From a virus, in IMG/VR virus record IMGVR_UViG_3300042922_000982, positions 93,407-157,406 of that record: a stretch of 64,000 nt of DNA; one strand, given 5' to 3'. Positions 1-51,535 of the stretch are shown here, in pieces. The notes beneath the pieces were generated by a model. That model saw only the letters and a program-made list of their open reading frames with translations, was not told the DNA's origin and ran no database searches. Position 1 is the stretch's first letter; every line of letters starts with the position of its first letter. A program made the position numbers and the translations under genes.

Positions 1-159
1 ATCGTGGACCGCCTGTTCGGCGTCGTCGAGGCTTGATCTGGCGATGGTGATCTGCAAGGTGCGGGGCCTGGGAAGATCCTTCAAGTGCAGGGTGGTGGTG
101 CGCTCCGCTGATACGAAGCGCACCCCCGACACCGTCACCTGGAAGGTCGTCTGTTCCAT
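1..159 (-). CDS. hypothetical protein, runs off left edge (MEQTTFQVTVSGVRF...)
   Basis: ATG at 159 just downstream of the giant gene stop; open to window edge. Confidence 0.5.
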   Translation of the reverse strand, partial: MEQTTFQVTVSGVRFVSAERTTTLHLKDLPRPRTLQITIARSSLDDAEQAVHD

Positions 160-180
160 GGCCCCGGCCCTGCCGATCGC

Positions 181-3100
181 CTACTCCAGATCCGGCTCGG
201 CGTGCCCGGCGGTACGGCCGGGCGCGCGATCGCTGCGTTTCTTGCCCATGAACTGGGCCTTCACGCGAGCGGGAGCCGCCTCGGCACCTTCCACCCGGCC
301 GAAGCGCGCCGCCTGGCGCACCTCGCCTGCCAGCTTCTGCTTGCGGGCAACCGCGATCCCCTTCTTCTCGTCCAGGGTCGAGACCCCGGCCGTGTGCGAG
401 CGGGTGATGACGCGGTGCACGATCGCCTTCGGCACCGAGCCGGTGAGGCGGGCGTGACGCCCGTAGAGCTGCTCCAGGTTGGCCTGGTTGTAGTCGCCGT
501 CCAGGTCGATCAGGTGCGTGCCGCGACCCAGGTTGACACCCGAGGCCGCGATGTTCGAGCTGACGACCAGGATCTTGTGCGCCTCGTTCTCGTTGAAGCT
601 CTTGACCGTATCGTTGCGCGAGGCGCTGATGCGGGTGTCGTGCTTCTCGACAGGCGACGTCTCCTCGTCCTCCGCGCCCGGCTCGGGCGTGAAGTCCTCG
701 TCGGTGCCGCCCGCCTCCTCGTGCGCCGCCTTCAGCTCGTCTTGCGACGCGCGGATGACGCCGTACTTGTAGCCCAGGCGATCGGCATCGGCGCCGCCCG
801 CCATCTTCTGCACGTCGGCATGGGCCCGCTTGAGGCGTTCGTACGTGTTGGACGTCTCGGGGAAGGTGCTGAGGCGATCGCGGGTGTCCGCGTGCGCCCG
901 CGCCACCGCCTTGAGGTTGCGGTGCTCGACCTCCTCCTCGTGCGTCAGACCGCCCGCCGCCGCCTTGGCGGACAGGTGGTTGTGGCGCTCGTAGGCGTGC
1001 TTCGTGTTGTCGTGGGTGTCTTGCAGGCTGGCCTTGAGGGCCTGGTGCTTGGTCGCCTCTTCGTGCATCTGGCGCTCGATCGGCTCCAGGCTGCTCTCGA
1101 GGTGGCGCTTGGCGTTGGCGCCCGAGTACTCGCCCATCACGCGCTTGGCCACCCCTTCGAGGTGGTTCTGGCCGTTGACGCGCTTGGAGGCGAGGATGAT
1201 CTTGGCGTGGGGGTCGTTGCGCATGATCTCGCGCACCTTGTCCTCCACGGCCTTGATCTTGTGAGCGTGAAGCTCCTCCTCCGAGTGGGCGATCGCCGCC
1301 AGGGCGCCCTTGCCGATCTTGCCGTCCTTGCCGCCGCCCTCGATCGCGCTCATGGCGCCAGAGCTGTGAAGCTCCTCGTGGTGGCGTTGGATCATGGCGT
1401 CGTGCTCGGGGCCGAGATCGACGTGCATGTCCTGCAACTGGGCCGACGGGGGACGCATCTCGGCGTCGAGGTCCTCGTTGGTGGAGGTCACCATGTAGCG
1501 GCTGAGCTTGTTACCCAGCTCGGCCTTCTTCTCCTCGTTGATGCCGATCAGGTGGCCGGTCGACTCGTCCTTGATGCCGTAGTTCTTGATGAACTGCTTC
1601 TCGGTGCCGAGATCGTGCTGGCCACGGTGCGTCATGTTGACGAGGTTGAGCTGCTCGCCCAGGTGGTTCTGGATCGGCGTGCCCGTGAGCGCCATGACGC
1701 CCTTGGCCCGGCCGTGCTGCGACGCCTTCAAGCCCGCGTCCTCGTGGTCGAGGCCGTGGATGTAGGCGTCCACCACCCGGCGCTGGCCGCCCTGCGTGCC
1801 CGCGCGGTTGAGCGTGTGCGCCTCGTCGACGATCACGCCGTCGAAGCCCTGCTCTTTCAGGTGCTGGGCGATCGGCTTGCCGCCCACCTTCTTGTTGCCG
1901 TGCACCGGGGCGCCGTCCTCGCCGAACAGCTCGTGCGCCTTGATGTTGTGCTCCGCCTCCAGGGCCGCCTGGACCTCGGGCCGGTGCAGATCATCGTGCG
2001 TGAGCCCCTTGTCGCGCATCACGTCCGCGAGCTTGACCGCCCCGATGCGGGTGGCCTTGTTCGCGAGCATGGAGCGCGTGACGACGTGGTACTTCGCGTT
2101 CGGGCTGATGTCCTTGCCGAACGAGATCTCGCCGCCCTCGTGGTGATCACCGGCGCCGGGCAGGTGCGGCTTCATGCCGAAGAAGGCCGCCGCGTCGTCT
2201 TTCCAGGCTTTCGCCTGGGTGGTGGAGGGCACCACGACCAGGTGCTTCTGCGCCGCGTCCGGGTTCTTCACCTTGGCAAGCTCGGCCGCCGCGAGCGCGG
2301 AGCTGGTCTTGCCGTTGCCGACGCCGAGCGCGCTGATGGTGCGCTGCCCGCCGTTGACGTAGTGGTGAATCATCTTCTGCTGGTGCTTGGTGAACCCGAT
2401 CTGACGGCCGTTGGTGTCGCCGTTGATGTGGCTCAACAGGCCAGGGATCGCCGTGGTCGCCTTGCCCTCGGGGCCGTAGACGTGAGAGCCCAGCTCGTCG
2501 AAGCCGTTGATCTGGTCGGCTGCGAGGGCCGCTTTTTGGCGGACCTGCTGCAAGCGCGGCAGGATGTCGCCGCGCAGCTTGACGCCGCCGAGCAGGTGCG
2601 TGATGCGGTCGACCGCCTCCATGGGCACGACCAGCCCGCGCTTGCCGCCCTTGGCGTTGGCCAGCTGGCCGTAGCCTTCCTCTTTCAGCATGCCGAGCAC
2701 CTGGGCGATCGCGTGCGCCTTGCGGATCGCCTGCGATTGCTCGGTGGTGGTGCCGAGGTTGGCGTCTTCCAGCCCGCCGAGGCCGTGCTTCTCGCCCAGC
2801 TCCTTGATGATGGCCTGCTCTTGCGCCTGGGTGGGCGTGCCCTTCCAGAACATCTTGTGCTTGACCATCGCGTTGGCCAGCTCGATCAGCTTGCCCTCGG
2901 GATCGGTGGGGTCCGACGGCAGGCTCAGAATGGCGCGCGGCTCGGGCGCGTCGATCTCGGGCAGGCCGTCCTTGACGCGCTGCTTGTTCGCCTTCAGGCG
3001 CGCCTTGCGCTCGTCGGCGGACTCGGGCTGCTCCATCTGGATGGTGGGCACGTCGGCGTGGGCCTTGCGGTCCGCGTCGGCGAGCTTGGCGTCGACGATC

Positions 3101-6100
3101 GCCTTCTCCTCGGGCGTGTGGGCCTCGAAGTAGGCGTGGGCCTTCTCGCGGCTCCAGTTGCCCAGGGCGGTCATCTTGTCCTGCTTGGCGTCGTAGCCCG
3201 CGAAGAGCTGCTTGCCGTTGTGCTCCACCGGCCCCTGGTGCTGGGCCAGGCCGCCGGTCTCGCCGATGATCTCGTGCAGGCGCTTGCCCGCCAGGTTGCC
3301 CTGGGTGATCACGGGCGACCCCTTGTGGTCGTACGTGACATGCATGAGCCAGTGGCTGTTGCCGTTGGAGAGGTGCACCACCGAGCTGGTGCCCGCCAGC
3401 GCGCGCAGCTTGCGGTTGAGGTCGTCGGCGGTGTGGATCACGGTGTCGCCGAGCAAGCCGCCCCAGTACTGATCCTTCACGCGGCCGTCGGCGCCGATGT
3501 GAATGTCGATGTCGTGGCCGTCGTGCGTGCGCGCGGTGAACGTGCGCGTGCCGTCGTCTTGCTGGGCGCCTTCCTTGAAGTCGACCGGGGCGTCCTCTGC
3601 CGCCGCCTTCGCCTTCTCGCCCTTGGTGGCCGTCTTGCGCACCTTGCCGTCGGCGACGGTGCGCTTGTGGCCCGCGATCTGCTTGGCGACGTGCTCGCTC
3701 AGGTCGTTGCCCGAGCTGTTCTGAATGGCCGCGTCGAGCTCCTTGTTGAAGTCGACCGCCAGGTTCTTGTTGTCGAGCCCCAGGTGGCGGTACAGCGCGG
3801 CGGCCGGGATGGTCCCGTCCTTCTTGCTGCCGGGCACCTGCGTCCCGTGCTCCGTCTCCGCGAACAGCTCGGTCTTGTGACCCTTCTTGCTCTTGGCGTC
3901 GTAGCTCTGGCGGACGTGAACGTGGACCGTCTTGCCCTCGTGCTGGATGGTGAACTTGTGCTCTTTCGCCGCCTTCTCGTCATCCGCGTGGCTGTGATCG
4001 CCGAAGTCGCCGCCGCCCGACAGGTGCGCGTGAAGCTCGGAGATGTGCTTGCCCACGAAGGCCGAGGGACCGGCGGCAATCTGGCCGCCCTTGGTGATGT
4101 ACACGGCGCGCCCGTGCATGGTGATCCAGCGCCCGCCGGGGTACTTCGAGAGCATCTCGGCGCCGATCCCCTTGAGGATCAGGTCGTCGAAGGGCTCGTC
4201 AACGCCCGCGACCAGCGCGTCGGCCACCCGGTAGGTCAGGCTGCCGGTGTAGCTCTTGGCGATCGCCTCGTCCACCTGGGACAGAGAACCCGGCCCGGCA
4301 AACGCCGCCATCTGGAAGATGAGGCCGTTGGCGCGGTCGACCACGGTCCAGACGCGATCGTCGCCGCCCAGGCTCTTGACCAGGCCGGTGTCGGCCAGCC
4401 ACATCTTCACCGTGCGCTGCGGCTCGGCGTCGAGGGGCCGATCCTCGAACACGAAGGCCATCAAGCGGCCCTCGGCGGTGTAGGGCATCAGCCCCTTGGT
4501 CAGCTCGGTGCCGTGGAAGTCCTGGAGGTCGCCCGCCAGCTGGAGGTGCTGCTTGGCGTTCATGAGCATCTTGCGGCCGGTGCCGGGGTGGTAGCCCAGG
4601 CGCTCGAACACGTCCGACACCGCGATCCAGCTCTTCTTGCCGCCCACCACGTCCTTGGTGGACTTGGGGGTGGTCAGCATGGCCATGTAGTCGCCCTTCC
4701 ACTTGAGGAGGTTGAGCGCCAGCTGGTACTTCTGGCCGTTCGGGTTGACCTTCGAGGGCTTGACGCCGCCGTTGACCAGCATGCGATTGACGATCATGTG
4801 ATCGTTAATGGCCACGGGCTCGCGATCGGCGGCTTGCAGGAGCGCCTTGTACTCCTTGCCCTTGCGCTGATCCTTGGGCACCTTGCGCACCGCGCTCTTG
4901 GCCGCCTGGATCTCGGCGTTCTGCGCGTTCAGGTCGTCCTTGGCGCGCTTGAGGCCCTCGGCCATGGCCGGAACGTGCTCGTGCTTGAGCATGTCCTTGA
5001 GCGCCTTGCCGCCGTCCTCGAGGCCCGCCGACACGACCACGGCGTAGCGCGCGCGGGGGTCGGGAATTTGCGCGATCGCCGCGCCCATGAGGGCCTGCAA
5101 CCGCTCCGAGTGATCGGCTTGCGCCACCTGGGCGAGCGGGTCGACGCCCTTGCCCTCGACCAGATCGCCGAGCGTGCCCGCTTGATCATCGTCGCCCGCC
5201 GGGGCGTCGAGGTGGGCGGCCACGACCTCGTGGGCCAGGCGCGACAGGCGCTTGACCTCGGCCGTTTCGACCTGCATGGCGTGAGCCAGCTCGGTGTCGG
5301 TGGCCGGGCGGCCAAGCTCCGTCTCCAGGGCGCCGCGCACGCGGCTCATCTGGGTCAGGCTGGTGTTGTCGGCCTGCGACACGCGAATGGGGCTGACGCC
5401 CATGATGTCGCGCCACTTGCGGCTCAACTCCTGATCGACGGTGCCCGCCACCTGATCGTGCAGGCTGGTGATGCGCTCGGTGGGGTCGTGGCGACCGATC
5501 ACCTGCCACGCGCTCATGCGGGCGTGCTGCGCCATGTCGGCGAAGAACGAATTGCTCGCCGGGCGGCCCTTCTCGTCGACGGAGGCCGTCATGCCGAGCT
5601 TGCGCATCCAGTTACCGGCGATCGCCACGATCTTCGGCTCCATGTTGCGCAGGGTCGCTTCTTTCACCCGGCGCTCCAGCTCCGGGGTGTAGTCCTTGTA
5701 GCCCTTGAGCTTCTCGCGGATCCGCTGCTTCGCCTCGTCGCCGTCGGCGAGGAAGAGCTGGCCTTCGAGCTTCTTCTTCTCGGCGAACTTGCCGAGGTGC
5801 TCCTCGAACACCGCCTGCTTCTGCACGCGGGCCGCCGCGCCCTCGGCGCTGTCCTTCTTGAGGCCCGGAATGTCGAACAGGGGGGCGGGCTTGCCGAGCG
5901 TCACCTTGGCCGGGGCCGCCGCCGTGTTCACCTTCGCGCGCACGTCGGGCTCGGCCCAGGCAAGCGAGCCCTGCGGGCCCACGCCGGGGAGCGTCTTGGG
6001 GGTCTTGGGCTTGGCGGCGGCCTTCGTCGCCTTCGTTTTCTTGCCGCCCGCCTCGCCGTGGGTGCCCACGGTCAGGACCGGCTGCTTGGCGTGCGCCTTG

Positions 6101-6567
6101 ACCTTGCCGCCCACATGGACGCCGGTCTTGCCCGCCTTGGCGGCAGCCTTGGTGGCCGGGGCGATCGCCGCCGCCTTCTTGGGCGATTGCGCCTTGAGGG
6201 CCGTGCTGGCCTTGCCCGTGGTGGGCTTGGTCGGCGCCTTGGCGACGGCCTTGGCCTTCACCTTGGCCTTCGGCGCGGCCACGGTGGCCGCCTTGCCCGC
6301 CTTCTTCGCGGGCTGGGCGCCCACGGGCTTGGCCTTGGGCACCGCCGCGCTGGCCTTGCCCTTGGTGCCCTTGACGGCCGCCTTGGTGGCCTTGGGGGCC
6401 GCGCCCGCTTTCGCGTCCTTCTTCTTGAGCTTCGCTTCCTCCAGAAGCTTGGCCGCGAGCGCGCTCACGACCTTTTTCTTGTTGACGTTGCGGGTGGTCT
6501 CGCGCACCTGGTAGACCGTGCCCGTTTTGGTGTGGCTCTGGTGAGCCTTCACCCTTTCGGTACTCAT
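181..6567 (-). CDS. giant polyvalent protein: N-terminal shared motif, Lys/Ala-rich region, sigma-70-like domain, linker, SNF2-type SF2 helicase
   Basis: AGGAGG 9 nt before ATG 6567; sigma-like NMEPKIVAIA, FADMAQ..RHDP, ELGRPATDTELA..HLDAPAGDDDQAGTLGDLV; helicase motifs GVGNGKT, IVDEAH, LTGTP, SGVNL, QLYGRHAR. Confidence 0.85.
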   Translation of the reverse strand: MSTERVKAHQSHTKTGTVYQVRETTRNVNKKKVVSALAAKLLEEAKLKKKDAKAGAAPKATKAAVKGTKGKASAAVPKAKPVGAQPAKKAGKAATVAAPKAKVKAKAVAKAPTKPTTGKASTALKAQSPKKAAAIAPATKAAAKAGKTGVHVGGKVKAHAKQPVLTVGTHGEAGGKKTKATKAAAKPKTPKTLPGVGPQGSLAWAEPDVRAKVNTAAAPAKVTLGKPAPLFDIPGLKKDSAEGAAARVQKQAVFEEHLGKFAEKKKLEGQLFLADGDEAKQRIREKLKGYKDYTPELERRVKEATLRNMEPKIVAIAGNWMRKLGMTASVDEKGRPASNSFFADMAQHARMSAWQVIGRHDPTERITSLHDQVAGTVDQELSRKWRDIMGVSPIRVSQADNTSLTQMSRVRGALETELGRPATDTELAHAMQVETAEVKRLSRLAHEVVAAHLDAPAGDDDQAGTLGDLVEGKGVDPLAQVAQADHSERLQALMGAAIAQIPDPRARYAVVVSAGLEDGGKALKDMLKHEHVPAMAEGLKRAKDDLNAQNAEIQAAKSAVRKVPKDQRKGKEYKALLQAADREPVAINDHMIVNRMLVNGGVKPSKVNPNGQKYQLALNLLKWKGDYMAMLTTPKSTKDVVGGKKSWIAVSDVFERLGYHPGTGRKMLMNAKQHLQLAGDLQDFHGTELTKGLMPYTAEGRLMAFVFEDRPLDAEPQRTVKMWLADTGLVKSLGGDDRVWTVVDRANGLIFQMAAFAGPGSLSQVDEAIAKSYTGSLTYRVADALVAGVDEPFDDLILKGIGAEMLSKYPGGRWITMHGRAVYITKGGQIAAGPSAFVGKHISELHAHLSGGGDFGDHSHADDEKAAKEHKFTIQHEGKTVHVHVRQSYDAKSKKGHKTELFAETEHGTQVPGSKKDGTIPAAALYRHLGLDNKNLAVDFNKELDAAIQNSSGNDLSEHVAKQIAGHKRTVADGKVRKTATKGEKAKAAAEDAPVDFKEGAQQDDGTRTFTARTHDGHDIDIHIGADGRVKDQYWGGLLGDTVIHTADDLNRKLRALAGTSSVVHLSNGNSHWLMHVTYDHKGSPVITQGNLAGKRLHEIIGETGGLAQHQGPVEHNGKQLFAGYDAKQDKMTALGNWSREKAHAYFEAHTPEEKAIVDAKLADADRKAHADVPTIQMEQPESADERKARLKANKQRVKDGLPEIDAPEPRAILSLPSDPTDPEGKLIELANAMVKHKMFWKGTPTQAQEQAIIKELGEKHGLGGLEDANLGTTTEQSQAIRKAHAIAQVLGMLKEEGYGQLANAKGGKRGLVVPMEAVDRITHLLGGVKLRGDILPRLQQVRQKAALAADQINGFDELGSHVYGPEGKATTAIPGLLSHINGDTNGRQIGFTKHQQKMIHHYVNGGQRTISALGVGNGKTSSALAAAELAKVKNPDAAQKHLVVVPSTTQAKAWKDDAAAFFGMKPHLPGAGDHHEGGEISFGKDISPNAKYHVVTRSMLANKATRIGAVKLADVMRDKGLTHDDLHRPEVQAALEAEHNIKAHELFGEDGAPVHGNKKVGGKPIAQHLKEQGFDGVIVDEAHTLNRAGTQGGQRRVVDAYIHGLDHEDAGLKASQHGRAKGVMALTGTPIQNHLGEQLNLVNMTHRGQHDLGTEKQFIKNYGIKDESTGHLIGINEEKKAELGNKLSRYMVTSTNEDLDAEMRPPSAQLQDMHVDLGPEHDAMIQRHHEELHSSGAMSAIEGGGKDGKIGKGALAAIAHSEEELHAHKIKAVEDKVREIMRNDPHAKIILASKRVNGQNHLEGVAKRVMGEYSGANAKRHLESSLEPIERQMHEEATKHQALKASLQDTHDNTKHAYERHNHLSAKAAAGGLTHEEEVEHRNLKAVARAHADTRDRLSTFPETSNTYERLKRAHADVQKMAGGADADRLGYKYGVIRASQDELKAAHEEAGGTDEDFTPEPGAEDEETSPVEKHDTRISASRNDTVKSFNENEAHKILVVSSNIAASGVNLGRGTHLIDLDGDYNQANLEQLYGRHARLTGSVPKAIVHRVITRSHTAGVSTLDEKKGIAVARKQKLAGEVRQAARFGRVEGAEAAPARVKAQFMGKKRSDRAPGRTAGHAEPDLE

Positions 6568-6658
6568 ACGCTCCATCCTCCTATTGGCATGGGATTGGCG
6601 TTCCGAGCGTAGCACGGGCAAGCAGCCGAAAAGGCACCATTTGACACCTTAGACGCAA

Positions 6659-6699
6659 TTATCCCCGAGGTGGGCCTGTTGGGCCTTCCTCGGGGATAA
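6659..6699 (-). terminator. 12-bp stem hairpin downstream of the tRNA-like RNA
   Basis: TTATCCCCGAGG ... CCTCGGGGATAA inverted repeat. Confidence 0.5.
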
Positions 6700-6722
6700 C
6701 TGCGGACTCCCGCCATGGGAGA

Positions 6723-6872
6723 TGGCGCCGTGGCAGGAATCGAACCTGCGATCTGAGGCTTCTCTGTTCCCGGCCGCCTGGGGGAGGTACTCCCGAACCG
6801 GGCGATATGGCCCCTCTCTCTACCTGGGTCGGGGTCTTGCAGGCACCCCTTCCGCCTGATGGTCATCACGGC
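6723..6872 (-). ncRNA. tRNA-like structured RNA, ~150 nt
   Basis: 5' GCCGTG pairs with 3' CACGGC followed by G-CCA; T arm GCAGG-TTCGATT-CCTGC; body too long for a standard tRNA. Confidence 0.7.
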
Positions 6873-6876
6873 GGGA

Positions 6877-6887
6877 CCAGTATACCC
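6877..6887 (-). promoter_or_regulatory. -10 box (GGGTATACTGG) for the tRNA-like RNA
   Basis: TATACT at 6884-6879, predicted 5' G lies 7 nt downstream; same 11-mer at 14313-14323. Confidence 0.6.
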
Positions 6888-7256
6888 TCATGCGTAATCG
6901 ATCGCCACCACGCGATCGCCCCAGCGGCCCACGTTGCTGTCGTCGAGGTCCTCGGTGAGCCCCGCGAACATGGCCGGGCACCATACCCATCCCTCCGGCA
7001 GCGGCTCGGCGCGGGCCATCACGTTGAGCCACCCGCCGGGGGACGCCCAGAGGGTCGGGCACAGCCGGAAGTGCCCCCGGTGCTGGGCCCACACCGACGC
7101 CTCGTTCATGTTGGACAAGAGCCCCCACAGGAACGCGTACCACCCGGCCGTCACGATGGGCACCTTCACCACCACGCCCCCGATCAAGAGGGCATGGCGG
7201 GTGGCGCCGGTGGCGATCGCCAACCGGCCGGGCAAGCGGCGCGCCAGGCCCCTCAC
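6888..7256 (-). CDS. minimal protein-kinase-like fold protein
   Basis: GTGA overlap with upstream stop; VVVKVP, NMNE, DLDDSNVG, VAIDY in kinase motif order. Confidence 0.55.
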   Translation of the reverse strand: MRGLARRLPGRLAIATGATRHALLIGGVVVKVPIVTAGWYAFLWGLLSNMNEASVWAQHRGHFRLCPTLWASPGGWLNVMARAEPLPEGWVWCPAMFAGLTEDLDDSNVGRWGDRVVAIDYA

Positions 7257-9163
7257 CACAGCAGGGGCGCCTCGGTGTCGCGCGGCACGGTAACGACCGC
7301 GTCGCGATCGCCGCGCCAATCGCCCACGCTCTTGGCGAGCCCGCCGCCGTGAATCTCGGCGTAGGTCAGCTGGGTCTCCTTCACCCCCTTGAACTCCTTG
7401 TGCGCCTTCACCTTGGCCGACATGTCGTAGGTGGTGCCCGGCTTGAGGCCGGTCGGCTTGGGGCTGAACCAGGAGGCCAAGTTGCCCTGCTCGTCGGTGA
7501 ACTTGTGCAGGTAGCTGGTGCCCCAGGCGTTGGTGATGGGGCGCGGCTCCTCGAGCAGCTTGAACTTGCCGGTCACGGGCGCGCCCGGCACGCCGATGTG
7601 GCCCGAGCGCTTCGGCGCGTTGACCATGCCGTTGGCGCGGGCGTCTTTCGCCGCCGTATTGGCCGCCTTGATGGCCGTGCGCTCCGCCTGCTCGGGGTCG
7701 ACGGGCGCGGGCCTCGGCGCCGCCGCCTTGAGGGGCCGCCCGGTGCCGACCAGCTTGTGCGCGAGCGCCACGTCGCGCGGCGACGGGTTCTGCTTGACCA
7801 GGTGGAAGCCGTCGTAGTCGAAGCCCGCGTCCATGAGGATGCGCCGCAGCCCCCTGGAGGTCTGCGGGAAGGTCAGATTGACGCCCAGGCCCCGCTTATT
7901 GGGGCCCTCGCCGTGCCGGACGGCGCCGTTGTAGCCGTCGTAGGTGCCGGGCGTGCCCATGTCGGGGCTGACGCCGTGATCGAGCCCGGTCACGCTGTAA
8001 CCCGCGTGATCGACCTGCGAATTGCCGATGATCACATGGCCGAACGGGCCCAGCACGACATGGTGGCCCTGCGTGCCGGGGCCGAGGTAGACGTGGTGGT
8101 CGTCGCCGAGCTTGACCACGTCGCCGGGGCTCAGGGGCGCCTGGGCGCCGTCCTTGCCCGCCTTGTCGTTGGCGATCGCCCCGGTGTGGGTGATGCCGCG
8201 CTGCCTCAACTCGTAGTCGACGTCCGGCGGCAGGGCCGGGCCTGCGGGTGGCTTGCTCATCTTCTTCGGTTCCCCGGGCGTTTTGTCCACCTTCACGGCC
8301 AGCCTTGGCTCGCGTTCGGTGGGCTTGGCGGTCGCCCGCTTCACTTTACCCTCCGCCGGGGCCTTCGCGCCAGATGCCTCGGGCTTGAGCGTGTGCGCCT
8401 TCGGCTTGACGAGCTTGGGCGCCTTGCCGGGCGCGGCGTCCTTCTTGACGGCCGCCTTCGGCGGCGCCTTGTCCGCCTTGACGGTCGCCTTCGGCTCGGG
8501 GGCGGGCTTGGGCGCCTGCTTCTTCACCGTGGCGATCGCCGCCTTGGTGGTCTTGGGCTTGGCGGCGGCCTTGGTCGCCTTGGGGGCCGCGCCCGCCTTC
8601 GCGTCCGGCTTGACCTTCTTGGCGGGGGCCTGCTTCGCCACGGCGGCCTTCGGCTTGGCGGCCGGTTTCACCGGGGTCGCCTTGACGGCGGGCTTCGGGG
8701 CCCTGACGGCGGGCTTGGGGCGGTTGACGCGCAGGTGATCGTGCGCCGCTTTCACCCAGGCCGCCGTGGCCGTGTCGACCGGGTGGGTCGTGTCGTTGGT
8801 GAAGGTGTACTTGTCGCGGGCCGTGGCGATCGCCGCCTTGATGTCGGGGATGGCCATGCCCTGGAAGTGCGCCCGGTGCTCCAGATAGACCTTGTCCGCG
8901 AGCGCCTTGAGCCGGGGGTCGGTCAGCCGATCAATGAAATCGCTGGCCTCCTTGGCCGTGATCGGCGCCGAGGCCGGGGCCGTCGCCGCGCGCGCCTCGA
9001 TAGCCATCTGGCTCGCCATGGCGGCCACCAGCGCCCGCTTGTTGACGTTGGCGGTGTGTGCGCGCACCTGCGCCACCTTGCCGCCCTTGGTGCGGCGCTG
9101 GTGCGCCCGCACGTTGACCAGGGCCTTGTTCAGCCCGTCGATCGCCTGATCCACCTGTCCCAT
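7253..9163 (-). CDS. probable head-packaged protein; shared N-terminal motif, Lys/Ala/Pro-rich middle, C-terminal OB-fold-like domain
   Basis: LNKA-LVNVRAHQRRTKGGKVAQVRAH; C-terminal SGHIG..FTDEQGN..WF..KVKAHKEFKGVKETQLT. Confidence 0.65.
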   Translation of the reverse strand: MGQVDQAIDGLNKALVNVRAHQRRTKGGKVAQVRAHTANVNKRALVAAMASQMAIEARAATAPASAPITAKEASDFIDRLTDPRLKALADKVYLEHRAHFQGMAIPDIKAAIATARDKYTFTNDTTHPVDTATAAWVKAAHDHLRVNRPKPAVRAPKPAVKATPVKPAAKPKAAVAKQAPAKKVKPDAKAGAAPKATKAAAKPKTTKAAIATVKKQAPKPAPEPKATVKADKAPPKAAVKKDAAPGKAPKLVKPKAHTLKPEASGAKAPAEGKVKRATAKPTEREPRLAVKVDKTPGEPKKMSKPPAGPALPPDVDYELRQRGITHTGAIANDKAGKDGAQAPLSPGDVVKLGDDHHVYLGPGTQGHHVVLGPFGHVIIGNSQVDHAGYSVTGLDHGVSPDMGTPGTYDGYNGAVRHGEGPNKRGLGVNLTFPQTSRGLRRILMDAGFDYDGFHLVKQNPSPRDVALAHKLVGTGRPLKAAAPRPAPVDPEQAERTAIKAANTAAKDARANGMVNAPKRSGHIGVPGAPVTGKFKLLEEPRPITNAWGTSYLHKFTDEQGNLASWFSPKPTGLKPGTTYDMSAKVKAHKEFKGVKETQLTYAEIHGGGLAKSVGDWRGDRDAVVTVPRDTEAPLLW

Positions 9164-10818: not shown

Positions 10819-12663
10819 CTACTTGCCCCCCTTCGCGGCCCGGATGGCCGCCTTCAACTCGCTCCACACCCGGTCCCACTCGGGCCCCGTCACCCTGGCA
10901 TGCGCCTTGTAGGACTCCATGTAGTGCGCCAAATCGACAAGCTCGTCGCGATCGCCCGCCATGTGGATGGCCAGCTCGAATTGGCGCGGGCTCTTCAGGT
11001 GCGCCGCGCCCCCCGTGACGAACGCGGGGGCATCCCCGAGCGGATCCGGCTTGGGCGGGGTGCGCCGGGCATGCCAATCGCTCACCGCGCCGCGCAGGGC
11101 CTCGTACTGCTTATGGACGTGCGCGTGGGCCTCGGAGCCGGGCCTTAGCGTGCGCAGGTGAGTGAGCGTCTGCATGGCGGCGGCGTGCAGGTGATCGGGG
11201 TGCTTGAGCCCCACCGCCTGCGGCATGGTCATGCGCGGGGCGTGCGCGGTGCCCTCCTCGAGATCCGCCTCGGCGGGCTTGCCCTTCTTGGCCGGTTTCG
11301 GCTTGGGTTTCGGCTTGGCGATCGCCTTCTCCATGGCCCACAGGGCGCCCTTGGCGATCGCGTCCATGCTCGGCGGCGCGGGCTCGGGCGCGATGGTCGC
11401 GACCAGGGCGGTGAGCGCCCCTAGCTCGTAGGTGTAGGGATTGGCGCCCGGCACGCGGCGCGCGGCCAGGCTCTTGACGATCTTGCCCACGGGTTTGGCC
11501 CTCCAGTTGTCGGGTTCTTTGGCCGCCACCGGGCTGGTGTGCGGGTAGCAGCGGCAGCGGGGATGCAGGGGTAGCAAATTGAGGATCTGGAGCAGGGAGT
11601 ACTTGCGCCCCTCGTGCGGCGCGCAGTGCTTGCAGACCTTGTCGTCGCCCATGGTGCGCAAGTAGACGTATTTATAGCCGTGCGCGCGCAGCACGTCGGC
11701 CACGCCGTGCGCGTAGCCCGCCGCCACCATGCACTCGGCGATCAGCTTGCTGCGGTGCATGCTATAGAGCTTGGAGAGCAGCGTGTCGACGTCGGCGGCC
11801 TCCCCGCGCGCGGCGATCATGGCCAGTTGGGTCTCGGTGGTGGCGCGGATGCGCCGCACGTTGCGCCGGGCGATCGCCTCCAGGCGCTTCTTGGTGGCGC
11901 CCCTGAACCCGCGCGTGCGATCGGGCGGCAGCTTGCCCCCTTTCGCGTCGTTGAGGATGGCGCGCGCGGCCTCGGCGCGGCCGAGCTTGGCGGCGCGCTC
12001 CAGGGCGTGCATGGTGAGGTCCGCGCCCTCCGCGTCGGAGCCCTTGTAGCGCGGCCGGGCCAAGTCCGAGAGCACCGGCCGGGCCTTGGGGTGCCCCTTG
12101 GGGTAGGGGGTGCCGATGGCCTTGGACAGCGTGAGGCCCTTCTCGCTCGCGATCGCCCGGACGTGCGCTTCGAGCCACGGCGCGAAGGCGTCTGCGAGCA
12201 CCCGCTCGACGCGCAGGCGCTCGTCGGTGAGGTCCAGCTCCTGCATGAGCCCGCGCGCCTTCTGCCCGACGAGCGCGCGGATGATCTCGCGGGTGGGCGG
12301 CATCAGCTTGGCCGGTAGCTGATCGGGGTAGACCCAGCGGGCCTCGTCGCTCTCGCGCTCGGCGATGCGGAGGGCGCCCTCGGGGTGGCGCATCAGGAAC
12401 GCCTTACCCACGCCGCCGGGGAAGGTGTAGTCCTGCGAGATGCCGGTATACGTGGCCGTGAGCCCGGTTTCCTCGAGTAGCTCGCGGTGCGCGCCCGCCA
12501 AAAACGACTCGCCGGGCTCCTTGCCGCCGCCGGGCAGGTTCCAGTGATCGCCGAACAACTCCTCGGTGGCGGGGCGGTGAAGCAGCAGCACGCGGCCCTG
12601 CGGGTCGACGACAACCGCGCGGGTGCCGGGCTTGAATTTCCAGGCGTCAGAAGCTTCGGGCAT
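10819..12663 (-). CDS. Nudix hydrolase fused to MuF/SPP1 gp7-like head morphogenesis protein
   Basis: Nudix box GGGKEPGESFLAGAHRELLEETGL; MuF motif DDKVCKHC..PLHPRCRC; GAGG before ATG 12663; close to portal. Confidence 0.85.
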   Translation of the reverse strand: MPEASDAWKFKPGTRAVVVDPQGRVLLLHRPATEELFGDHWNLPGGGKEPGESFLAGAHRELLEETGLTATYTGISQDYTFPGGVGKAFLMRHPEGALRIAERESDEARWVYPDQLPAKLMPPTREIIRALVGQKARGLMQELDLTDERLRVERVLADAFAPWLEAHVRAIASEKGLTLSKAIGTPYPKGHPKARPVLSDLARPRYKGSDAEGADLTMHALERAAKLGRAEAARAILNDAKGGKLPPDRTRGFRGATKKRLEAIARRNVRRIRATTETQLAMIAARGEAADVDTLLSKLYSMHRSKLIAECMVAAGYAHGVADVLRAHGYKYVYLRTMGDDKVCKHCAPHEGRKYSLLQILNLLPLHPRCRCYPHTSPVAAKEPDNWRAKPVGKIVKSLAARRVPGANPYTYELGALTALVATIAPEPAPPSMDAIAKGALWAMEKAIAKPKPKPKPAKKGKPAEADLEEGTAHAPRMTMPQAVGLKHPDHLHAAAMQTLTHLRTLRPGSEAHAHVHKQYEALRGAVSDWHARRTPPKPDPLGDAPAFVTGGAAHLKSPRQFELAIHMAGDRDELVDLAHYMESYKAHARVTGPEWDRVWSELKAAIRAAKGGK

Positions 12664-12696
12664 GGGCATCCTCGGGGAAACGGGCGATCGGACCTC

Positions 12697-12707
12697 CATT
12701 GTAGCGG
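12697..12707 (-). promoter_or_regulatory. -10 box motif CCGCTACAATG
   Basis: TACAAT upstream of MuF gene; repeated at 19379-19389 and, as GCTACAATG, at 46274-46282. Confidence 0.55.
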
Positions 12708-12725
12708 CAGATGCGTCCGAAAGGG

Positions 12726-12764
12726 CCGAAACCGCCAGGCCGCTTGTGGGCCTGGCGGTTTCGG
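12726..12764 (-). terminator. 16-bp perfect hairpin
   Basis: CCGAAACCGCCAGGCC / GGCCTGGCGGTTTCGG just after the 12786 stop. Confidence 0.6.
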
Positions 12765-12785
12765 GATAACGGGCGATCGCCGCAC

Positions 12786-13220
12786 TTACGCCTGGGCGGG
12801 CGATTCCGGGGCGGGGTCGCCCGCGATAGCGAGCAGGAGCTTGCGGTAGCCGTCGTCCTGGGCGATCGCCAGGTTGTCGCGCTCGCCGCTGCCGGGCTGC
12901 GCCAGCACATGGGACGTGGCGATGGCGAACCCGAGCAGGACGTGCATCCGCTGGGGGAGCGTCTCCGGATTCGGCGGCATCGCGATCGCCTCGTACTCGG
13001 CGGCCAACGCGGCCAGGGCCGGTTTGTCGAGCGCGAGGGTCATCTGCAAGGGCAGGAGCGCCGCCTTGCACTCGGCGACCACCTCCGCTCGGTGCGACGC
13101 CGGGAAGCGGTCCAGGGCGGTGAATAGCGAGCGGTAGCCCGCGCGCAGAGCGTCGAGGGCCGTAGCCATGGCCGCAGCGGCGGCGATCGTGGCCGGATCG
13201 TTGGCGTCAAGCGTCTCCAT
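12786..13220 (-). CDS. hypothetical protein
   Basis: start overlaps upstream stop. Confidence 0.65.
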   Translation of the reverse strand: METLDANDPATIAAAAAMATALDALRAGYRSLFTALDRFPASHRAEVVAECKAALLPLQMTLALDKPALAALAAEYEAIAMPPNPETLPQRMHVLLGFAIATSHVLAQPGSGERDNLAIAQDDGYRKLLLAIAGDPAPESPAQA

Positions 13221-15153: not shown

Positions 15154-16809
15154 TTACGCGGGCTCCTCGCTGCCGTCGGGGTTCACCTTGGGCAAGCTGG
15201 GGGGCGCTGCGCCCTGCGGGGCGCCTTGATCGCCCTGGGCGGCCTGCTGGCCACCGGGGGCGCCTTGCTGGGCATCCTGGCCGCCGTCCTGGCCGCCTTG
15301 ATCGCCATCGTCGCCGTTCATCATGCCCTGCGCTTGCAGGTCGGCCTGCTTGTACATCTGCCACGCCTGGAACAGGGTCGGATCCTTGGGGATGTCGCCC
15401 CAGAATTGCTCCTCGGGGACGGCTTTCAGGTCGAATTCGGCGCGCACCTCGTTGACGGTCTTGATGCCCGCCTGCATGAACTTGGTGGCGGTGTCGACCT
15501 TGGTGCTGACCTGATCGGGGTCGAGGCCGGTCCAGGCGAATTCCAGCTCGCCTGAAGGGTCGAGCCGCGACATGATGTCGTCGTTGATGCCCGATTGCAG
15601 GCGGTTGAGCAGGGGGATCAGGCCCTTCGATTGGCTGTGAACGAGCGTGGCCTCGTTGTTGCCCTGGTTGCCGAGCCCGCCCGGCTCGCCCGCGCCCTTG
15701 GCGCCGAAGCCGATCTCCTCGCGATCGCACTGGTAGAGCGCGCAGATGATCGTGATCAAGAAATCGAGCCACTCGTGGAACTCCATGTCCTTGTTGCTGT
15801 TCTTGATGCTCGTCCAGTTGACGCCCTTGCCCTCCTTGAAGGCCATGACCGGCACGCGGTGGCTGTTGCCGACGCCGGAGACCATGGCGTTCCAGTAGCG
15901 CGTGAAGTTCTCAAGCTGCTCGGAGGTGTACTGGCCCATCAGGCTCAAGACGCCCTCGGGGATGTTGCCGTGGGTGAAGTAACGGCTGTTGTAGGTCATG
16001 GAATTCAAGAAGCCGGTCACGGTCTCGATCATGCCCTCGACCTCGCTGAAGCCGTAGCCGTTGGCCGTCAGGTCGGTGCGCGGGTTGCGGATCCAGTAGG
16101 CCAGCTCGCGATCGGTGAAATCGGCGTAGGGCTGGCCGTTGACGATCTGCACGAAGGCGATCTCGTCGGATTCGTCGTGGGGGACGCCGCCGTACCCGGC
16201 GCCGCGCATGCCGACCACCGACGCCATGTTGGCGTTCAAGAATCCGGCGTTGGCGCGGTAGCCGGGCGCGGCGATCTCGATGGTCGCGCCGTCGACCGCG
16301 AACCAATCGAACAGGGCGCCCTTGGCATCGTCGCGAATTTCGATGGCCATGGCGTCCAGGTTGAGCGTGTCGCGGACGATCGCGCGCAGGAACGGATCCA
16401 GGCTGGGCCGCTTGCCCTTCTCGGGGGGCGCCACGCCGCACTTGAGGATGGTCTCCTCGTAGGCGCGCATCAGCTTCTTGGCCGCCGGGCCCGTGCGCTG
16501 ATCGCGGTCCTTCATGCGCACCTCGAAGCCCATGTCGCCTTCGTAGTGCGGGCGGCGGGCGAAGCGGGCCACCTGGTTCTGGCGGGTCAGGATCACCGCG
16601 CCGATCGGCTGGCAGGCGCGGGCCACCTCGCGCAGGGTGTGCAGGCTGAGGCTGTTGGCCTGGCGCGGGCGCGTGCCCATCACCTGCCACATGACGTTGG
16701 TGGGGTCGTAGAGGTGCGCGTGCAGGGGGTTGATCGCGCCCGGCTGGGCCTGCGCCTGCGTCTGCGCCGCCTTGCCGCGTGCCAGCTTGTCCTTGTGCTT
16801 CTTCGCCAT
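15154..16809 (-). CDS. portal protein (Twort/SPO1-like)
   Basis: NGYGFSEVE, YFTHGNIPEGVL, DMEFHEWLDFLITIICALY..EEIGF, SQSKGLIPLL; GGAGG RBS. Confidence 0.92.
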   Translation of the reverse strand: MAKKHKDKLARGKAAQTQAQAQPGAINPLHAHLYDPTNVMWQVMGTRPRQANSLSLHTLREVARACQPIGAVILTRQNQVARFARRPHYEGDMGFEVRMKDRDQRTGPAAKKLMRAYEETILKCGVAPPEKGKRPSLDPFLRAIVRDTLNLDAMAIEIRDDAKGALFDWFAVDGATIEIAAPGYRANAGFLNANMASVVGMRGAGYGGVPHDESDEIAFVQIVNGQPYADFTDRELAYWIRNPRTDLTANGYGFSEVEGMIETVTGFLNSMTYNSRYFTHGNIPEGVLSLMGQYTSEQLENFTRYWNAMVSGVGNSHRVPVMAFKEGKGVNWTSIKNSNKDMEFHEWLDFLITIICALYQCDREEIGFGAKGAGEPGGLGNQGNNEATLVHSQSKGLIPLLNRLQSGINDDIMSRLDPSGELEFAWTGLDPDQVSTKVDTATKFMQAGIKTVNEVRAEFDLKAVPEEQFWGDIPKDPTLFQAWQMYKQADLQAQGMMNGDDGDQGGQDGGQDAQQGAPGGQQAAQGDQGAPQGAAPPSLPKVNPDGSEEPA

Positions 16810-16831
16810 GGGGCCTCCGGTGATCAAAACG

Positions 16832-16871
16832 GCTGGGGGTGGGAATGCCAAGCAAGCACCCCACCCCCAGC
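16832..16871 (-). terminator. hairpin with T tract upstream of portal
   Basis: GCTGGGGGTGGG / CCCACCCCCAGC followed by CGTTTT. Confidence 0.5.
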
Positions 16872-26954: not shown

Positions 26955-28970
26955 CTAGAGCCGGGACTGGATGGGCAAGTCGCACACGGGGCACGGCGCC
27001 ACCTTCTCGGTCGCGTCGATCTCGACGTGCCCCTTGTGGTGGGGGCACCACACGTCGCGGGTGTTCTTGGGGCGATCGTCTTGCGGGTGGCGATCGCCGT
27101 CTTGCACCGAGCCCGCCCCGCGCGGCAGGTCGAAGAACACGGACGCGCCTCCCGAGCGGGTGATCGCCTGGTGCGCGACCACCATGACCGCATCGAGCGC
27201 GTCGTCGGTCTGCACCGGGCCCGCCGTGGGGGCGTGGGCTGCGATCAGGCGCTTCTTTTTGGTGTTGCGGCCCTTGAGGCTCTTGAGCGCGGCCATCATT
27301 TCGCGTTTGAGCAGCATGATCGAGTAGATCGGCCACTTGGTCTCGTCGTCGTCCCAGCCGTCTTTCTCAAGCTCCTTGTCGGCCATGGCCCACAATTCCG
27401 GCGGCGTCTCGGGCAGGGCCAGGCGCTCCTCGAACACCAGCTGCTTGAAGTTGGTGGCCAGCTCGTCGTTGAAGACGTCCGTGAAGGTCGTCTTGATCGC
27501 GTTGATGCCCATGTCCTCGAGGTCCTGGATCATCTGGATGCTGCTGAATTGGTCGAAGGATACCTGCGTCACCGTGACCCGCTTGGCGATCCGCTTGATG
27601 AACGGCAGCAGCTCCTTGGTGTAACCCACCTCGCGGTTGAACGCGCGAATCAGGTCGATCACGACCACGCCCTTGCGGACGTGCCCGACGGCCACCACGA
27701 GGCGATCGCCGCCTTCGGAGGTGTCGACGTGCACCACGCGCTCGTACTTGCGCGCGTCCTTGACGAACGCCTCTTCAAGCTCCCGATCCGAGATGGTGCC
27801 GAGCGGCATGGCCGCCGTGCGCCCGGTCAGGGCGGTGTAGAGCTTGACCATGGCCTCGAATTGGCTCGCCACGTTGGGCAGCAGGTTCTTGGCGCCGGTG
27901 AAGAATTGCGCGCCGTACTCGGTCTCGGCGACGTCGGGGTCCTTGCGGTACTCGGCGGCGTAGTCGTCTTTCGTCTCGCCGGGGATCATCTCCCACGAGG
28001 CCAGCTGCACCACGAGCGCGTTCTCGAACGTGCCCGCGATCGCCTGGCAGTACAACTCGTAGAGCACGCCGTCGGCCTCGGCGGGCGAGGACAGGATCAG
28101 CACGATGCCCTTCCCCTTGGCGCGGGTCTTGACCGCGCTTCGGATGGCGGTGTAGAGCGCGCGATCCGATCGAGGCCCCGACGTCTTCTCGGCGAAGGCG
28201 ATCTCGTCGTGGATGTAAACGACCGTGTCACGGCCACGGCCCGACTTGGAGTTAGACGAGCCCCGCTCCGCCCACAGGTGCTTGCCGAACTTCATCATGC
28301 CTTTGATCGGCGGGCTATACCGGCCGTTGAACCACTTGACGCGCTCGATGAAGCTGACGAACGCATCGAAGAACTCGCCCGCCTGCGCGGCCGAGGTGGC
28401 CACGTTCTGGATGCGCAGCGCCTTCAAGGCGGCCAGGTTGAACAGGGCGTGCGGGTTCGGCTGACTCAGGATGCGGTGGCCCTGGTGCCCGGCCGTGCCT
28501 GCCGCGAAGGTGGTCTTACCGCCGCCACGGCCGATGATCAGCACGATCGTCCGGGGCTCCGAGCTATTGTCGTCCAGGCTCTCGAAGACCTGGGCGTACG
28601 GGTTTTTGCGGCTCTTCAGGTACGCCCAATCGGCCACCTCGTCGTACCAGTAGACGCCCGCGTCGTCCTGCTCGACGCAATGGCCCATGGTGCGCATCAG
28701 CTTCTCGCCGTCGAAGCCCAAGCACATGGTCGCGGCATCGAACGGGTAGCGCGCCAGGCGCGTGTCGAGCGGCCGGTGATTGGCGGCGTTGTCGATCACC
28801 TTGGCGAGCAGCCGCTGGCGCGGGCGCAGGATCATGTGCGCCCAGTCCTCGTGCTCCAGAAACACGTCGAGCGGCACGACCTCACCCGATTGATCTGTGC
28901 CCTCTTCGAGCATCGAGATCATGCGGGTGTAGGCGTCGTCCGCCAGGATGGTCTTGCTCGCCACCGCCAT
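26955..28970 (-). CDS. terL: terminase large subunit
   Basis: Walker A GRGGGKT, Walker B YIHDEIAF, ILSSP, EYGAQF, nuclease VHVDTS..D and TDDALDA. Confidence 0.9.
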   Translation of the reverse strand: MAVASKTILADDAYTRMISMLEEGTDQSGEVVPLDVFLEHEDWAHMILRPRQRLLAKVIDNAANHRPLDTRLARYPFDAATMCLGFDGEKLMRTMGHCVEQDDAGVYWYDEVADWAYLKSRKNPYAQVFESLDDNSSEPRTIVLIIGRGGGKTTFAAGTAGHQGHRILSQPNPHALFNLAALKALRIQNVATSAAQAGEFFDAFVSFIERVKWFNGRYSPPIKGMMKFGKHLWAERGSSNSKSGRGRDTVVYIHDEIAFAEKTSGPRSDRALYTAIRSAVKTRAKGKGIVLILSSPAEADGVLYELYCQAIAGTFENALVVQLASWEMIPGETKDDYAAEYRKDPDVAETEYGAQFFTGAKNLLPNVASQFEAMVKLYTALTGRTAAMPLGTISDRELEEAFVKDARKYERVVHVDTSEGGDRLVVAVGHVRKGVVVIDLIRAFNREVGYTKELLPFIKRIAKRVTVTQVSFDQFSSIQMIQDLEDMGINAIKTTFTDVFNDELATNFKQLVFEERLALPETPPELWAMADKELEKDGWDDDETKWPIYSIMLLKREMMAALKSLKGRNTKKKRLIAAHAPTAGPVQTDDALDAVMVVAHQAITRSGGASVFFDLPRGAGSVQDGDRHPQDDRPKNTRDVWCPHHKGHVEIDATEKVAPCPVCDLPIQSRL

Positions 28971-46307: not shown

Positions 46308-47303
46308 TCAAGCAGGGCGCGCGGCCTCCTTGTGGCGCTCGGCCACCAGGGCCATGTCCATGGCGTCGCTCATGGGCGTGTCGTGGAAGACGACCCGCTT
46401 GGCCGCGCGGGTGGTGACCCGCTCGATCTCGGCGAACGACAAGCCCGCGAGCTTGGGGTCGTAGAGGTCGCGCGCCTTGTCCGTCGGCGCCATGGCGAGC
46501 AAGTCCATGGCCACCCGCGTGAAGTAGGCCCACGCCGCGTCGGGCGTGGGGGCCGGGAAGTAGAGCGCCTCATCGAAGCGGCGCCACACGGCCGGGTCGA
46601 CCACCGTGTCGAGGTTGGTGGTCGCCAGGATCAAGCTGTGCCCGTCGTAGGCGTCGAGCATGGCCAAGAGGCTGTTGGTGACCCGCTTGATCTCGCCTAG
46701 CTCGGTGTGCGTGCCGCTGCCCGCGCGATTCGATGCGATCGCGTCGAACTCGTCGAAGAGCAAGACGCAGCGGGGCGCCTTATCCAGAAAGTCGAAAATC
46801 TTCCGCAAGTTGCGCGCCGTGCCGCCCAGGTGGCTCTCGAGGATGGCGTCCATGCGCGCCACCAGGAACGGCAGGCCCATCTCCTTGGCGATCGCCTCGG
46901 CGGTGGCCGTCTTGCCCGTGCCCGGCGGGCCCATCATGATCAGGCGGTTGGCGGGGCGGAACCCGTGATCGAGGTAGGTCTTCGGGTCGGTGTTCTCCTC
47001 GATCACGCGCGTCACCACCTCGATGGCCGCCGCATCGAGCGCCACGTCCGCGAGCCCCCGCCGGGTGACGCGCCGTTCGAGCAAGTCGAGCGTCCCGTCC
47101 TTCGGCAATAGCTGCATGAGCTGCCGGTCCTCGTCCATAAACCCGCACTTCTCGGCATGCGAGAGCGCCTGGGTCAGCCGCTTGGCGAGCCCCGTGCCCG
47201 CGCACTCGCCCGCCAGCCGCTTGATCGTGGCGGCGACCGCCTTGCGATCGCCGCGCAGGCCCTCGGTGGCGAGGGCGAGGGCGCTGTTGTCGTCGATGGG
47301 CAT
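46308..47303 (-). CDS. AAA+ ATPase, IetA-like
   Basis: GPPGTGKT, LLFDEFD, GEIKRVTNSLL, ATTN..DPAVWRRFD. Confidence 0.88.
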   Translation of the reverse strand: MPIDDNSALALATEGLRGDRKAVAATIKRLAGECAGTGLAKRLTQALSHAEKCGFMDEDRQLMQLLPKDGTLDLLERRVTRRGLADVALDAAAIEVVTRVIEENTDPKTYLDHGFRPANRLIMMGPPGTGKTATAEAIAKEMGLPFLVARMDAILESHLGGTARNLRKIFDFLDKAPRCVLLFDEFDAIASNRAGSGTHTELGEIKRVTNSLLAMLDAYDGHSLILATTNLDTVVDPAVWRRFDEALYFPAPTPDAAWAYFTRVAMDLLAMAPTDKARDLYDPKLAGLSFAEIERVTTRAAKRVVFHDTPMSDAMDMALVAERHKEAARPA

Positions 47304-47999: not shown

Positions 48000-48067
48000 G
48001 GTGGTCCTTTCGGTGGGGGTGGAAAAATGGCCGTTAGGGCGGCCCTGCGGGGTGTGGTGCGGGGTGT

Positions 48068-48421
48068 TTAGCCGGGGAGCTTGCGCTTGACGGCCGCCAC
48101 GCCCGCCATCTGGAGCGTGCGCATGATGGCGGGCATCAGGCCGTCCTTGGCGATCACCTCCTGGGCGATCGAGGCGGCCACCCCGGTGGCGGCATCGAAC
48201 AGGCGCACGCCAGCGGGCGTGTGGATCAAGGCGACGCCGGACGGCAGCGCCGGATCGGGCCGGACCGGGGTGCCGCCGCGCGTGAGCGTGGGCTTGTAGA
48301 GCGCCGCGTGCACGCTAAGCGACATGGTGATCGTGGCGCCCGTGGCCGCGACCGGGTTGCCCCAGATGAGCTTGTCCATGGCGAGCAACATGCGCTCGCA
48401 GCGGGCGTGAGACGTCAGCAT
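48068..48421 (-). CDS. hypothetical protein
   Basis: GAGGAGG RBS. Confidence 0.55.
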   Translation of the reverse strand: MLTSHARCERMLLAMDKLIWGNPVAATGATITMSLSVHAALYKPTLTRGGTPVRPDPALPSGVALIHTPAGVRLFDAATGVAASIAQEVIAKDGLMPAIMRTLQMAGVAAVKRKLPG

Positions 48422-49752: not shown

Positions 49753-49765
49753 GTCTGGGGGCTCC

Positions 49766-50158: not shown

Positions 50159-50328
50159 CCTTGCGGCCATCCTTCCAGTACTCGTAGCCCAGGCTCGCGA
50201 CCCACGCGGCGATGACGATCGTGGTGAACAGCGTGGCCGCGTCGGGGCCGCAGAAGGCGCGCACGACGTAGCTCATCACGAAGGCCAGCAACATGGCCTT
50301 CTGGCGGGTCGAGGCGCCCGCCAACACA

Positions 50329-51532: not shown

Positions 51533-51535
51533 GGC

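Follow-up and report, generated by a model that had tools for sequence, protein, structure and literature searches.

A giant open reading frame joining a divergent sigma-70 module to a SNF2 ATPase among the putative head-cargo genes of a SPO1-like soil phage

The stretch of DNA analysed here (the window) comprises the final 64 kb of the 157,406-base virus record IMGVR_UViG_3300042922_000982 (69% guanine plus cytosine, GC), which was present in one soil metagenome run, with no RNA run listed as containing it, and whose genome is estimated to be complete. On the minus strand of the window, a single open reading frame (ORF) without stop codons runs from 6621, or from the ATG at 6567, which is preceded by a GGAGG site, to position 181. 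Its product, P0001, joins a divergent sigma-70 module (residues 255-691) to an intact SNF2 ATPase (residues 1386-2090), as had been proposed in a preliminary description made from the DNA letters without database searches. The features of the locus are given in Table 1. A plus-strand ORF (202-6612) was rejected as an antisense shadow of the kind typical of high-GC DNA.

Searches revealed five further phages, from other samples, with the same fusion; their proteins (P0003, P0004, P0005, P0008, and P0009) are full-length homologues at 30-53% identity. In addition, four shorter homologues (P0006, P0007, P0010, and P0011) have the sigma part without a working SNF2 ATPase. The six fusions referred to below are P0001 and its five full-length homologues, and the ten sigmas are these six together with the four shorter forms. 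Wherever its context could be seen, the fusion is the final large gene of a cargo-type gene run and is followed by, or lies near, a block of opposite-strand genes, and at the homologue loci it is placed among portal, MuF, and LPD1 genes. It must be noted that P0001 comes from a single metagenome record, and that the one run holding window positions 1-9000 in one contig may be the source of that record and is thus not an independent confirmation. Nevertheless, an assembly or frameshift artefact is exceedingly improbable because five other phages, each sampled independently, carry the fusion in full length. These homologues also speak against a stop or an assembly join between the domains, which the preliminary description had named as a ground for rejecting the fusion. 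Whole P0001 had no match among 50,697 GenBank phages, its SNF2 part gave only weak partial helicase matches, and IMG/VR scans with the sigma part, the capsid protein, and the promoter pattern described below gave no match.

The Pfam family Sigma70_r3 matched residues 406-477 above its cut-off (expect value, E, 8e-9) and was matched in 10/10 homologues, and NCBIfam sigma families matched P0001 with E values from 4e-9 to 1e-5. A profile of the ten sequences aligned with RpoD (hhalign, 97.6%, E 3.7e-12) over 175 columns, from region 2.2 to region 4.1. The AlphaFold model of residues 255-691 reached a predicted local distance difference test (pLDDT) score of 80.7, and its top Foldseek matches were all sigma factors; within it, model residues 42-135 (296-389 of P0001) superposed on the sigma2 domain of SigE (8b3z) with a Z of 11.9 and a root-mean-square deviation (rmsd) of 1.6 A over 78/78 residues. 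Profile comparison and structure prediction thus both detect a sigma fold, with sigma2 and sigma3 present, and the sigma-70-like regions at about 4540-5660 stand in the correct order, as the preliminary description had read them.

About 125 helical residues break up region 4, in agreement with the long insertion suspected from the start. Region 4.1, ahead of the insertion, was aligned by sequence. Region 4.2, behind it, consists of predicted helices with an invariant R-x-G turn; whole-chain alignments reach the sigma C-terminus with an rmsd above 20 A, the Pfam region 4 family has no match in P0001, and the recognition helix is unlike that of RpoD, the protein falling outside the group 1/2 (RpoD-like) sigmas. 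Region 4.2 is the least certain part of the sigma assignment. The core-binding residues D344 and Q347 are invariant across the fusions. In 10/10 sigmas the region 2.3 aromatics are lost and the WW dyad is replaced, by G-x in nine of them and by S-A in P0007. For region 2.4, a register of the group-3 'IRG' kind was weighed and discarded, as both profile tools prefer the register that sets G-x on the WW dyad.

In co-folding with residues 200-340 of B. subtilis beta-prime, which served as a stand-in for the host protein, region 2.2 was placed on the clamp helices with a score of 0.78 (best control, 0.13), passing a mark that is reached by 58/80 solved complexes and by 2/110 mismatched pairs. The runs shared at least 78% of their contacts, the pLDDT of the partners was at least 77, and the contacts centred on D344, Q347, H348, and M351. 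Given that sigma and the clamp helices are a textbook pair, this pass may reflect likeness to solved holoenzymes, and it shows likeness and not binding.

The preliminary description had also recognized a full set of SF2/SNF2 motifs, and this reading holds. Motifs I, Ia, II (DEAH), III, V, and VI and both arginine fingers are kept in 6/6 fusions, and P0001 is matched by the Pfam families SNF2-rel_dom (E 3.5e-8), Helicase_C (6.6e-8), and ResIII (5e-7). The best match of the ATPase among solved structures was an archaeal Rad54-like SNF2 protein (E 2e-10). The RapA-specific N- and C-terminal domains gave no Pfam match at E values up to 1, and no adenine methylase was matched in P0001 by Pfam, NCBIfam, or PHROGs, the middle region having no assigned fold. 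From these motifs, the SNF2 product is predicted to be an active double-stranded DNA translocase. It appears to be dispensable for the sigma, because P0007, P0010, and P0011 end soon after a cut site described below and have no SNF2, and P0006, of whose ATPase just a remnant of the second lobe is left (E 4e-8), the catalytic lobe being gone, keeps its sigma and promoters. P0006 is sister to the fusions P0008 and P0009 (support 100/100), which points to a secondary loss of SNF2. No stand-alone gene for the C-terminal product was found among proteins of 730-2326 residues, save one weak SNF2 match. Within the middle region, the conservation of residues 1001-1180 is on a par with that of the ATPase (56% identity, 26% invariant). 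The model of residues 800-1390 (pLDDT 71.6) gave a best Z of 4.8 and an atlas template modelling (TM) score of about 0.2, and a feature scan had no match; such weak fold matches demonstrate neither a fold nor novelty.

Sites of the type expected for a prohead protease were sought as a hydrophobic residue, any residue, and K, followed by S, G, or A. The capsid block contains 13 copies of this cut motif where 4.2 are expected, with eight in the 267-residue scaffold, four in the protease, and one in the capsid protein (K42); 11 such motifs are present in the SPO1 scaffold and one in the SPO1 capsid leader, and the scaffold and capsid leader of the P0006 phage show the same motif. The capsid proteins of A511 and phage K are reportedly cut at such a K/S bond. 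In P0001, K691, K731, and K799 are the only motif sites common to 6/6 fusions, and all of them fall between sigma and SNF2. A fourth motif of this spacer, K771, is not conserved. Almost nothing else in the spacer is invariant, its motif density is 12-fold that elsewhere, and in 10/10 sigma homologues a cut motif directly follows region 4.2. The sigma and SNF2 halves are probably cut apart.

P0001 and the two cargo proteins encoded upstream share an N-terminal tag and have no cysteine, compared with about 1.4% in the non-structural proteins; in the homologues, 7/9 cysteines lie in the spacer or the tail, after the first cut. Avoidance of cysteine is said to mark the ejected proteins of N4; the paper checked makes no mention of it. 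The first 240 residues of P0001 have an isoelectric point of 10.7. In the P0004 phage, the gene directly upstream of the fusion encodes another tagged cargo protein, which carries a SNF2 ATPase of its own and of a more canonical type (L001, 4820-9484).

A possible DNA target of the sigma was found outside the window. An unbiased repeat count yielded 17 copies of GGAACG-N16-GATA[AG] at genome positions 32336-86591, all on the plus strand, against 0.14 expected. These elements stand at gene boundaries with invariant spacing and are followed by a leader and a ribosome site (loci L009-L012), and the same 60-kb block contains just two weak sigma70-type sites. The P0005 phage has the same element. 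In the phages of P0008, P0009, and P0006, TTCTAC-N15/16-GATA is present in two, three, and three copies, respectively (n = 8), in intergenic gaps of the opposite-strand blocks, and these three proteins form a separate sigma clade, the 4.2 helix and a region 2.4 residue of which differ from clade A. The upstream element varies with the sigma clade and GATA is constant. GGAACG-N16-GATA is, on this sequence evidence, a candidate cognate promoter of the phage sigma. No repeated promoter was detected in the short flanks of the P0004 and P0003 sigma genes. Behind most copies of GGAACG-N16-GATA stand a leader hairpin, GGGAGGG...CCCTCC, and a ribosome site of nearly constant sequence (GGAGAACCGCCATG, 27 copies in the genome). 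A second promoter-like class, with TGGCAAA about 27 bases before TAnnnT, was noticed at genome positions 4313, 16572, 32020, 129056 (-), and 46228 (+), at structural operons and at spoVS; a similar TGGCAAA precedes spoVS in L017.

No second sigma was detected in the 157-kb genome. With regard to polymerases, the genome had no match to PF00562 or PF00623 (beta and beta-prime), for which 14/14 positive controls were detected, nor any polymerase-type catalytic DFDGD/DYDGD motif in its six frames; the PF00940 scan for a T7-like polymerase had no match, but neither did its positive controls. As no phage polymerase gene was detected, the sigma would need the host core enzyme.

The phage encodes a SPO1-like capsid protein (32% identity, E 2e-45). 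The head gene block in which the preliminary description had placed the fusion is confirmed only in part: portal, NUDIX-MuF protein, and large terminase are encoded upstream on the same strand, whereas the genes for protease, scaffold, and capsid protein are found together at genome 28.8-32.1 kb, about 60 kb from the fusion ORF, across the early block. This opposite-strand block of small genes (about 55-60 kb) includes DnaN and SpoVS. The protease matches the PHROG head maturation protease (E 2e-33) and is a homologue of SPO1 gp3.2 (38%, E 3e-26).

Table 1. Features of the fusion ORF and of its upstream neighbours (window coordinates; residue numbers refer to the protein concerned)
Feature	Coordinates	Strand	Remarks
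Whole ORF P0001, 2128 amino acids (aa), no cysteine	181..6567	-	Last gene of head-cargo run; five full-length homologues
N-terminal tag (VKAHxS..G..V..V..H type), putative head-targeting signal	6448..6567	-	Common to two upstream cargo genes, homologues, and neighbours
Lys/Ala-rich basic low-complexity arm, 41-240	5848..6447	-	Poorly conserved
Sigma domain 2, 296-389	5401..5682	-	D344 and Q347 retained; other residues in place of region 2.3 aromatics and WW dyad
Sigma domain 3 and acidic 3.2 linker, 406-477	5137..5352	-	Pfam PF04539, E 8e-9
Sigma region 4.1, ~480-520	5008..5130	-	Sequence alignment to RpoD
Helical insertion inside region 4, 521-645	4633..5007	-	Length variable, much shorter in P0006
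Putative region 4.2 helix-turn-helix and C-terminal helix, 646-688	4504..4632	-	Non-canonical recognition helix
Spacer with predicted prohead-protease sites	4171..4497	-	K691 (4495-4497), K731 (4375-4377), K799 (4171-4173)
Second conserved motif GGxWxTxxGxxVxI, 811-824, putative tag of C-terminal product	4096..4137	-	Just after last cut
Middle region, 846-1385, no family or fold assigned	2413..4032	-	Conserved domain at 1001-1180
SNF2-family ATPase, 1386-2090	298..2412	-	Walker A 2305-2325, DEAH 1816-1827, motif VI 448-474
Tagged cysteine-free cargo protein, 636 aa	7253..9163	-	Cut motifs at K13 and K611
Tagged cysteine-free cargo protein, 541 aa	9192..10817	-	Cut motif at K21
NUDIX and weak MuF-like protein	10819..12786	-	Several cut motifs; Pfam NUDIX E 4e-19, Phage_Mu_F E 0.025
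Portal protein	15154..16851	-	Pfam Phage_portal E 5e-24
Large terminase	26955..28970	-	PHROG 2, E 1e-15

Some further traits of the neighbourhood were observed. The cargo protein encoded at 7253-9163 carries a PHROG 2319 domain (E 3e-17) at its C-terminal end, behind the N-terminal tag; the same module is present in L002 (3-3305), where a cut motif links it to an LPD1-like protein. Just upstream of the fusion gene, at 6723-6870 (-), lies a tRNA-like RNA with an acceptor stem ending in CCA and a canonical T arm, between a TATACT box and a strong hairpin (6651-6707); neither ARAGORN nor Rfam called it. A replication arm at 46308-59658 (-) encodes a single-stranded DNA-binding protein, an IstB/DnaC-like loader, ThyX, a D12 adenine methylase, and an AAA ATPase; no DNA polymerase was noticed in it, no systematic search having been made. 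Among the fusion phage and its relatives, at least four have SpoVS in the opposite-strand block (genome 46227-46610; L015, 13337-13960; L017, 16519-16827; the P0007 contig) and at least two have DnaN. Their carriage is a possible clue to the host, although genome scans with the two proteins and a PDB ranking of DnaN singled out no host. Words containing GCGATCGC are strongly over-represented across the whole genome, an excess that we take to resemble the cyanobacterial HIP1 octamer and that may be another host clue.

The explanation towards which these data lean, if only slightly, is that a packaged sigma, released by the protease, redirects the host core polymerase to early phage promoters, with SNF2 as a co-delivered passenger. 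P0001 would be made late as a head-cargo polyprotein and brought into the prohead by its N-terminal tag, where the SPO1-type maturation protease would cut after K691, K731, and K799. This would yield a basic sigma product of about 74 kDa and a SNF2 product of about 144 kDa with its own conserved N-terminal motif, and both would be ejected along with the DNA. The sigma product, which has a sigma2-sigma3-sigma4 layout by profile and fold, could then bind the beta-prime clamp helices of the host core, as in the model, and guide it to the early block, where the 17 GGAACG-N16-GATA elements would serve as promoters. Indirect signs of packaging are the tag, the cut motifs, the lack of cysteine, and the position among portal, MuF, and LPD1 genes. 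Early transcription would in this way start without a phage polymerase and without reliance on a host sigma. The SNF2 product would not be needed for sigma function; at a guess, it clears or remodels proteins on the incoming DNA or recycles polymerase. The preliminary description had suggested that host RNA polymerase is redirected or jammed after injection; redirection is the alternative favoured here and gains a candidate cognate promoter, and jamming seems less likely.

Several observations weigh against this explanation. The match between promoter and sigma is one contrast between two clades and not many independent events, and the two clades may differ in host too (GC 57-62% vs. 67-69%). 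No repeated promoter was found in the 10 kb adjoining the P0010 sigma gene, and at one clade-B locus a clade-A-type match falls within a gene. Taken over the cargo block as a whole, the cut motif is no commoner than expected (20 observed, 21 expected), and therefore the argument for cleavage rests on position and conservation. Finally, as judged from the aligned sequences, all region 2.3 aromatics are lost, which leaves promoter melting unexplained.

This last point is the starting place of a different proposal, in which sigma and SNF2 stay coupled, either joined or re-associated, and the ATPase pumps DNA open for a melting-deficient sigma, as XPB does for RNA polymerase II. It would account for the retention of the fusion in six phages at 30-53% identity and for sigmas that have lost aromatics and WW dyad in 10/10 cases beside intact SNF2 motifs; moreover, among jumbo phages SNF2 helicases go together with phage RNA polymerases (PMC7824862), and phage Arash packages a helicase with polymerase and sigma (PMC10585845). 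However, the halves are separated by three conserved cut motifs, P0006 has lost the ATPase lobe and keeps sigma and promoters, and P0007, P0010, and P0011 have no SNF2. The idea of the preliminary description that sigma and translocase form one fused machine is weakened by these three protease-type sites and four relatives without a working SNF2, and we consider a coupled unit unlikely. We are equally doubtful of the stronger form of this proposal, an injected sigma with SNF2 supplying promoter opening, which would amount to ATP-driven, TFIIH-like initiation for a sigma-70-type holoenzyme in SPO1-like soil phages.

Two other explanations do without an injected sigma that acts on early promoters. 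The protein might be an ordinary sigma whose gene is read from a host-type promoter once infection is under way; the plus-strand block would then belong to the middle class, and tag and cut motifs would be relics or of use to the SNF2 half only. The TATACT box, which resembles a -10 element, is about 310 nt upstream of the gene, the P0010 sigma gene is separated from the cargo run by four opposite-strand genes, and de novo synthesis of sigmas is the rule in SPO1-like phages (PMC3601020). Yet the tag and the cut motif after region 4.2 persist in the stand-alone forms, cysteine is avoided, the strong hairpin stands between the TATACT box and the gene, and the target block carries genes of the host-takeover type, so that synthesis after infection seems improbable. 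Slightly less probable still is that the sigma is a decoy, which occupies the host core and shuts off host transcription while a host alternative sigma reads the repeated element. The core-binding residues are kept and those for DNA melting and the canonical -35 box are not, and GGAAC resembles ECF -35 boxes; but a phage with no polymerase of its own needs the host core, none of regions 3, 3.2, and 4 has been lost, and from one phage sigma clade to the other the upstream element differs as GATA stays.

Early phage transcription is known to begin through the host holoenzyme, a whole packaged polymerase, or modification of the host polymerase. If the favoured explanation of a packaged, protease-released sigma is true, delivery of the specificity subunit alone would be a further and minimal route, making early expression independent of whichever host sigma is active. 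The candidate promoter, in two variants matched to two sigma clades, gives a prediction testable in vitro and would offer an orthogonal sigma-promoter pair, as well as a natural test of DNA melting by a sigma without region 2.3 aromatics.

Among known systems, the closest in content is Salmonella phage Arash, which has a sigma (Gp10), a polymerase (Gp206/Gp216), and a helicase (Gp217), with sigma and helicase identified in purified particles by mass spectrometry (PMC10585845). Both phages combine a sigma with a helicase. Nonetheless, Arash packages its own beta and beta-prime and has separate sigma and helicase genes, whereas here a sigma-ATPase fusion has predicted cut sites and no polymerase gene was detected. 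Iyer et al. (2017; PMC5512222) described polyvalent proteins, including P1 DarB with its SWI2/SNF2 ATPase, which are found in portal/MuF/LPD contexts and are predicted to be injected with DNA. P0001 is likewise a large protein with unrelated activities, a virion-gene context, and a SNF2 ATPase, but sigma is mentioned zero times in that work and the SNF2 domains there are coupled to adenine methylases, of which none was detected in P0001; the comparison with DarB made in the preliminary description is hence apt for the SNF2 half and not for the remainder.

A literature search with limited reach into subscription journals found neither a sigma-SNF2 fusion nor a sigma injected without polymerase. 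In SPO1-like and group 2 jumbo phages, the sigma is a separate protein that works on the host core once infection has begun (PMC3601020; PMC7824862). SPO1 gp28/gp34, T4 gp55, Bc431v3 gp108/109, and the group 2 jumbo-phage sigmas resemble the function proposed here in redirecting host core to phage promoters, and the head genes of our phage are SPO1-like; they are small, stand-alone middle or late genes, whereas P0001 bears a tag of the head-cargo type and an insertion of 125 residues in region 4 and seemingly serves the earliest class. N4 gp50, the phiKZ virion RNA polymerase (vRNAP), crAss-like gp66, and T4 Alt share with it delivery in the virion of a protein that starts or biases early transcription, but these are whole polymerases or a modifying enzyme and here a specificity subunit alone is proposed. 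RapA/HepA is also a SNF2-family ATPase linked to transcription (PMC5512222, PMC7824862); it differs in its specific domains, without Pfam match in P0001, the best structure match of which is archaeal Rad54-like.

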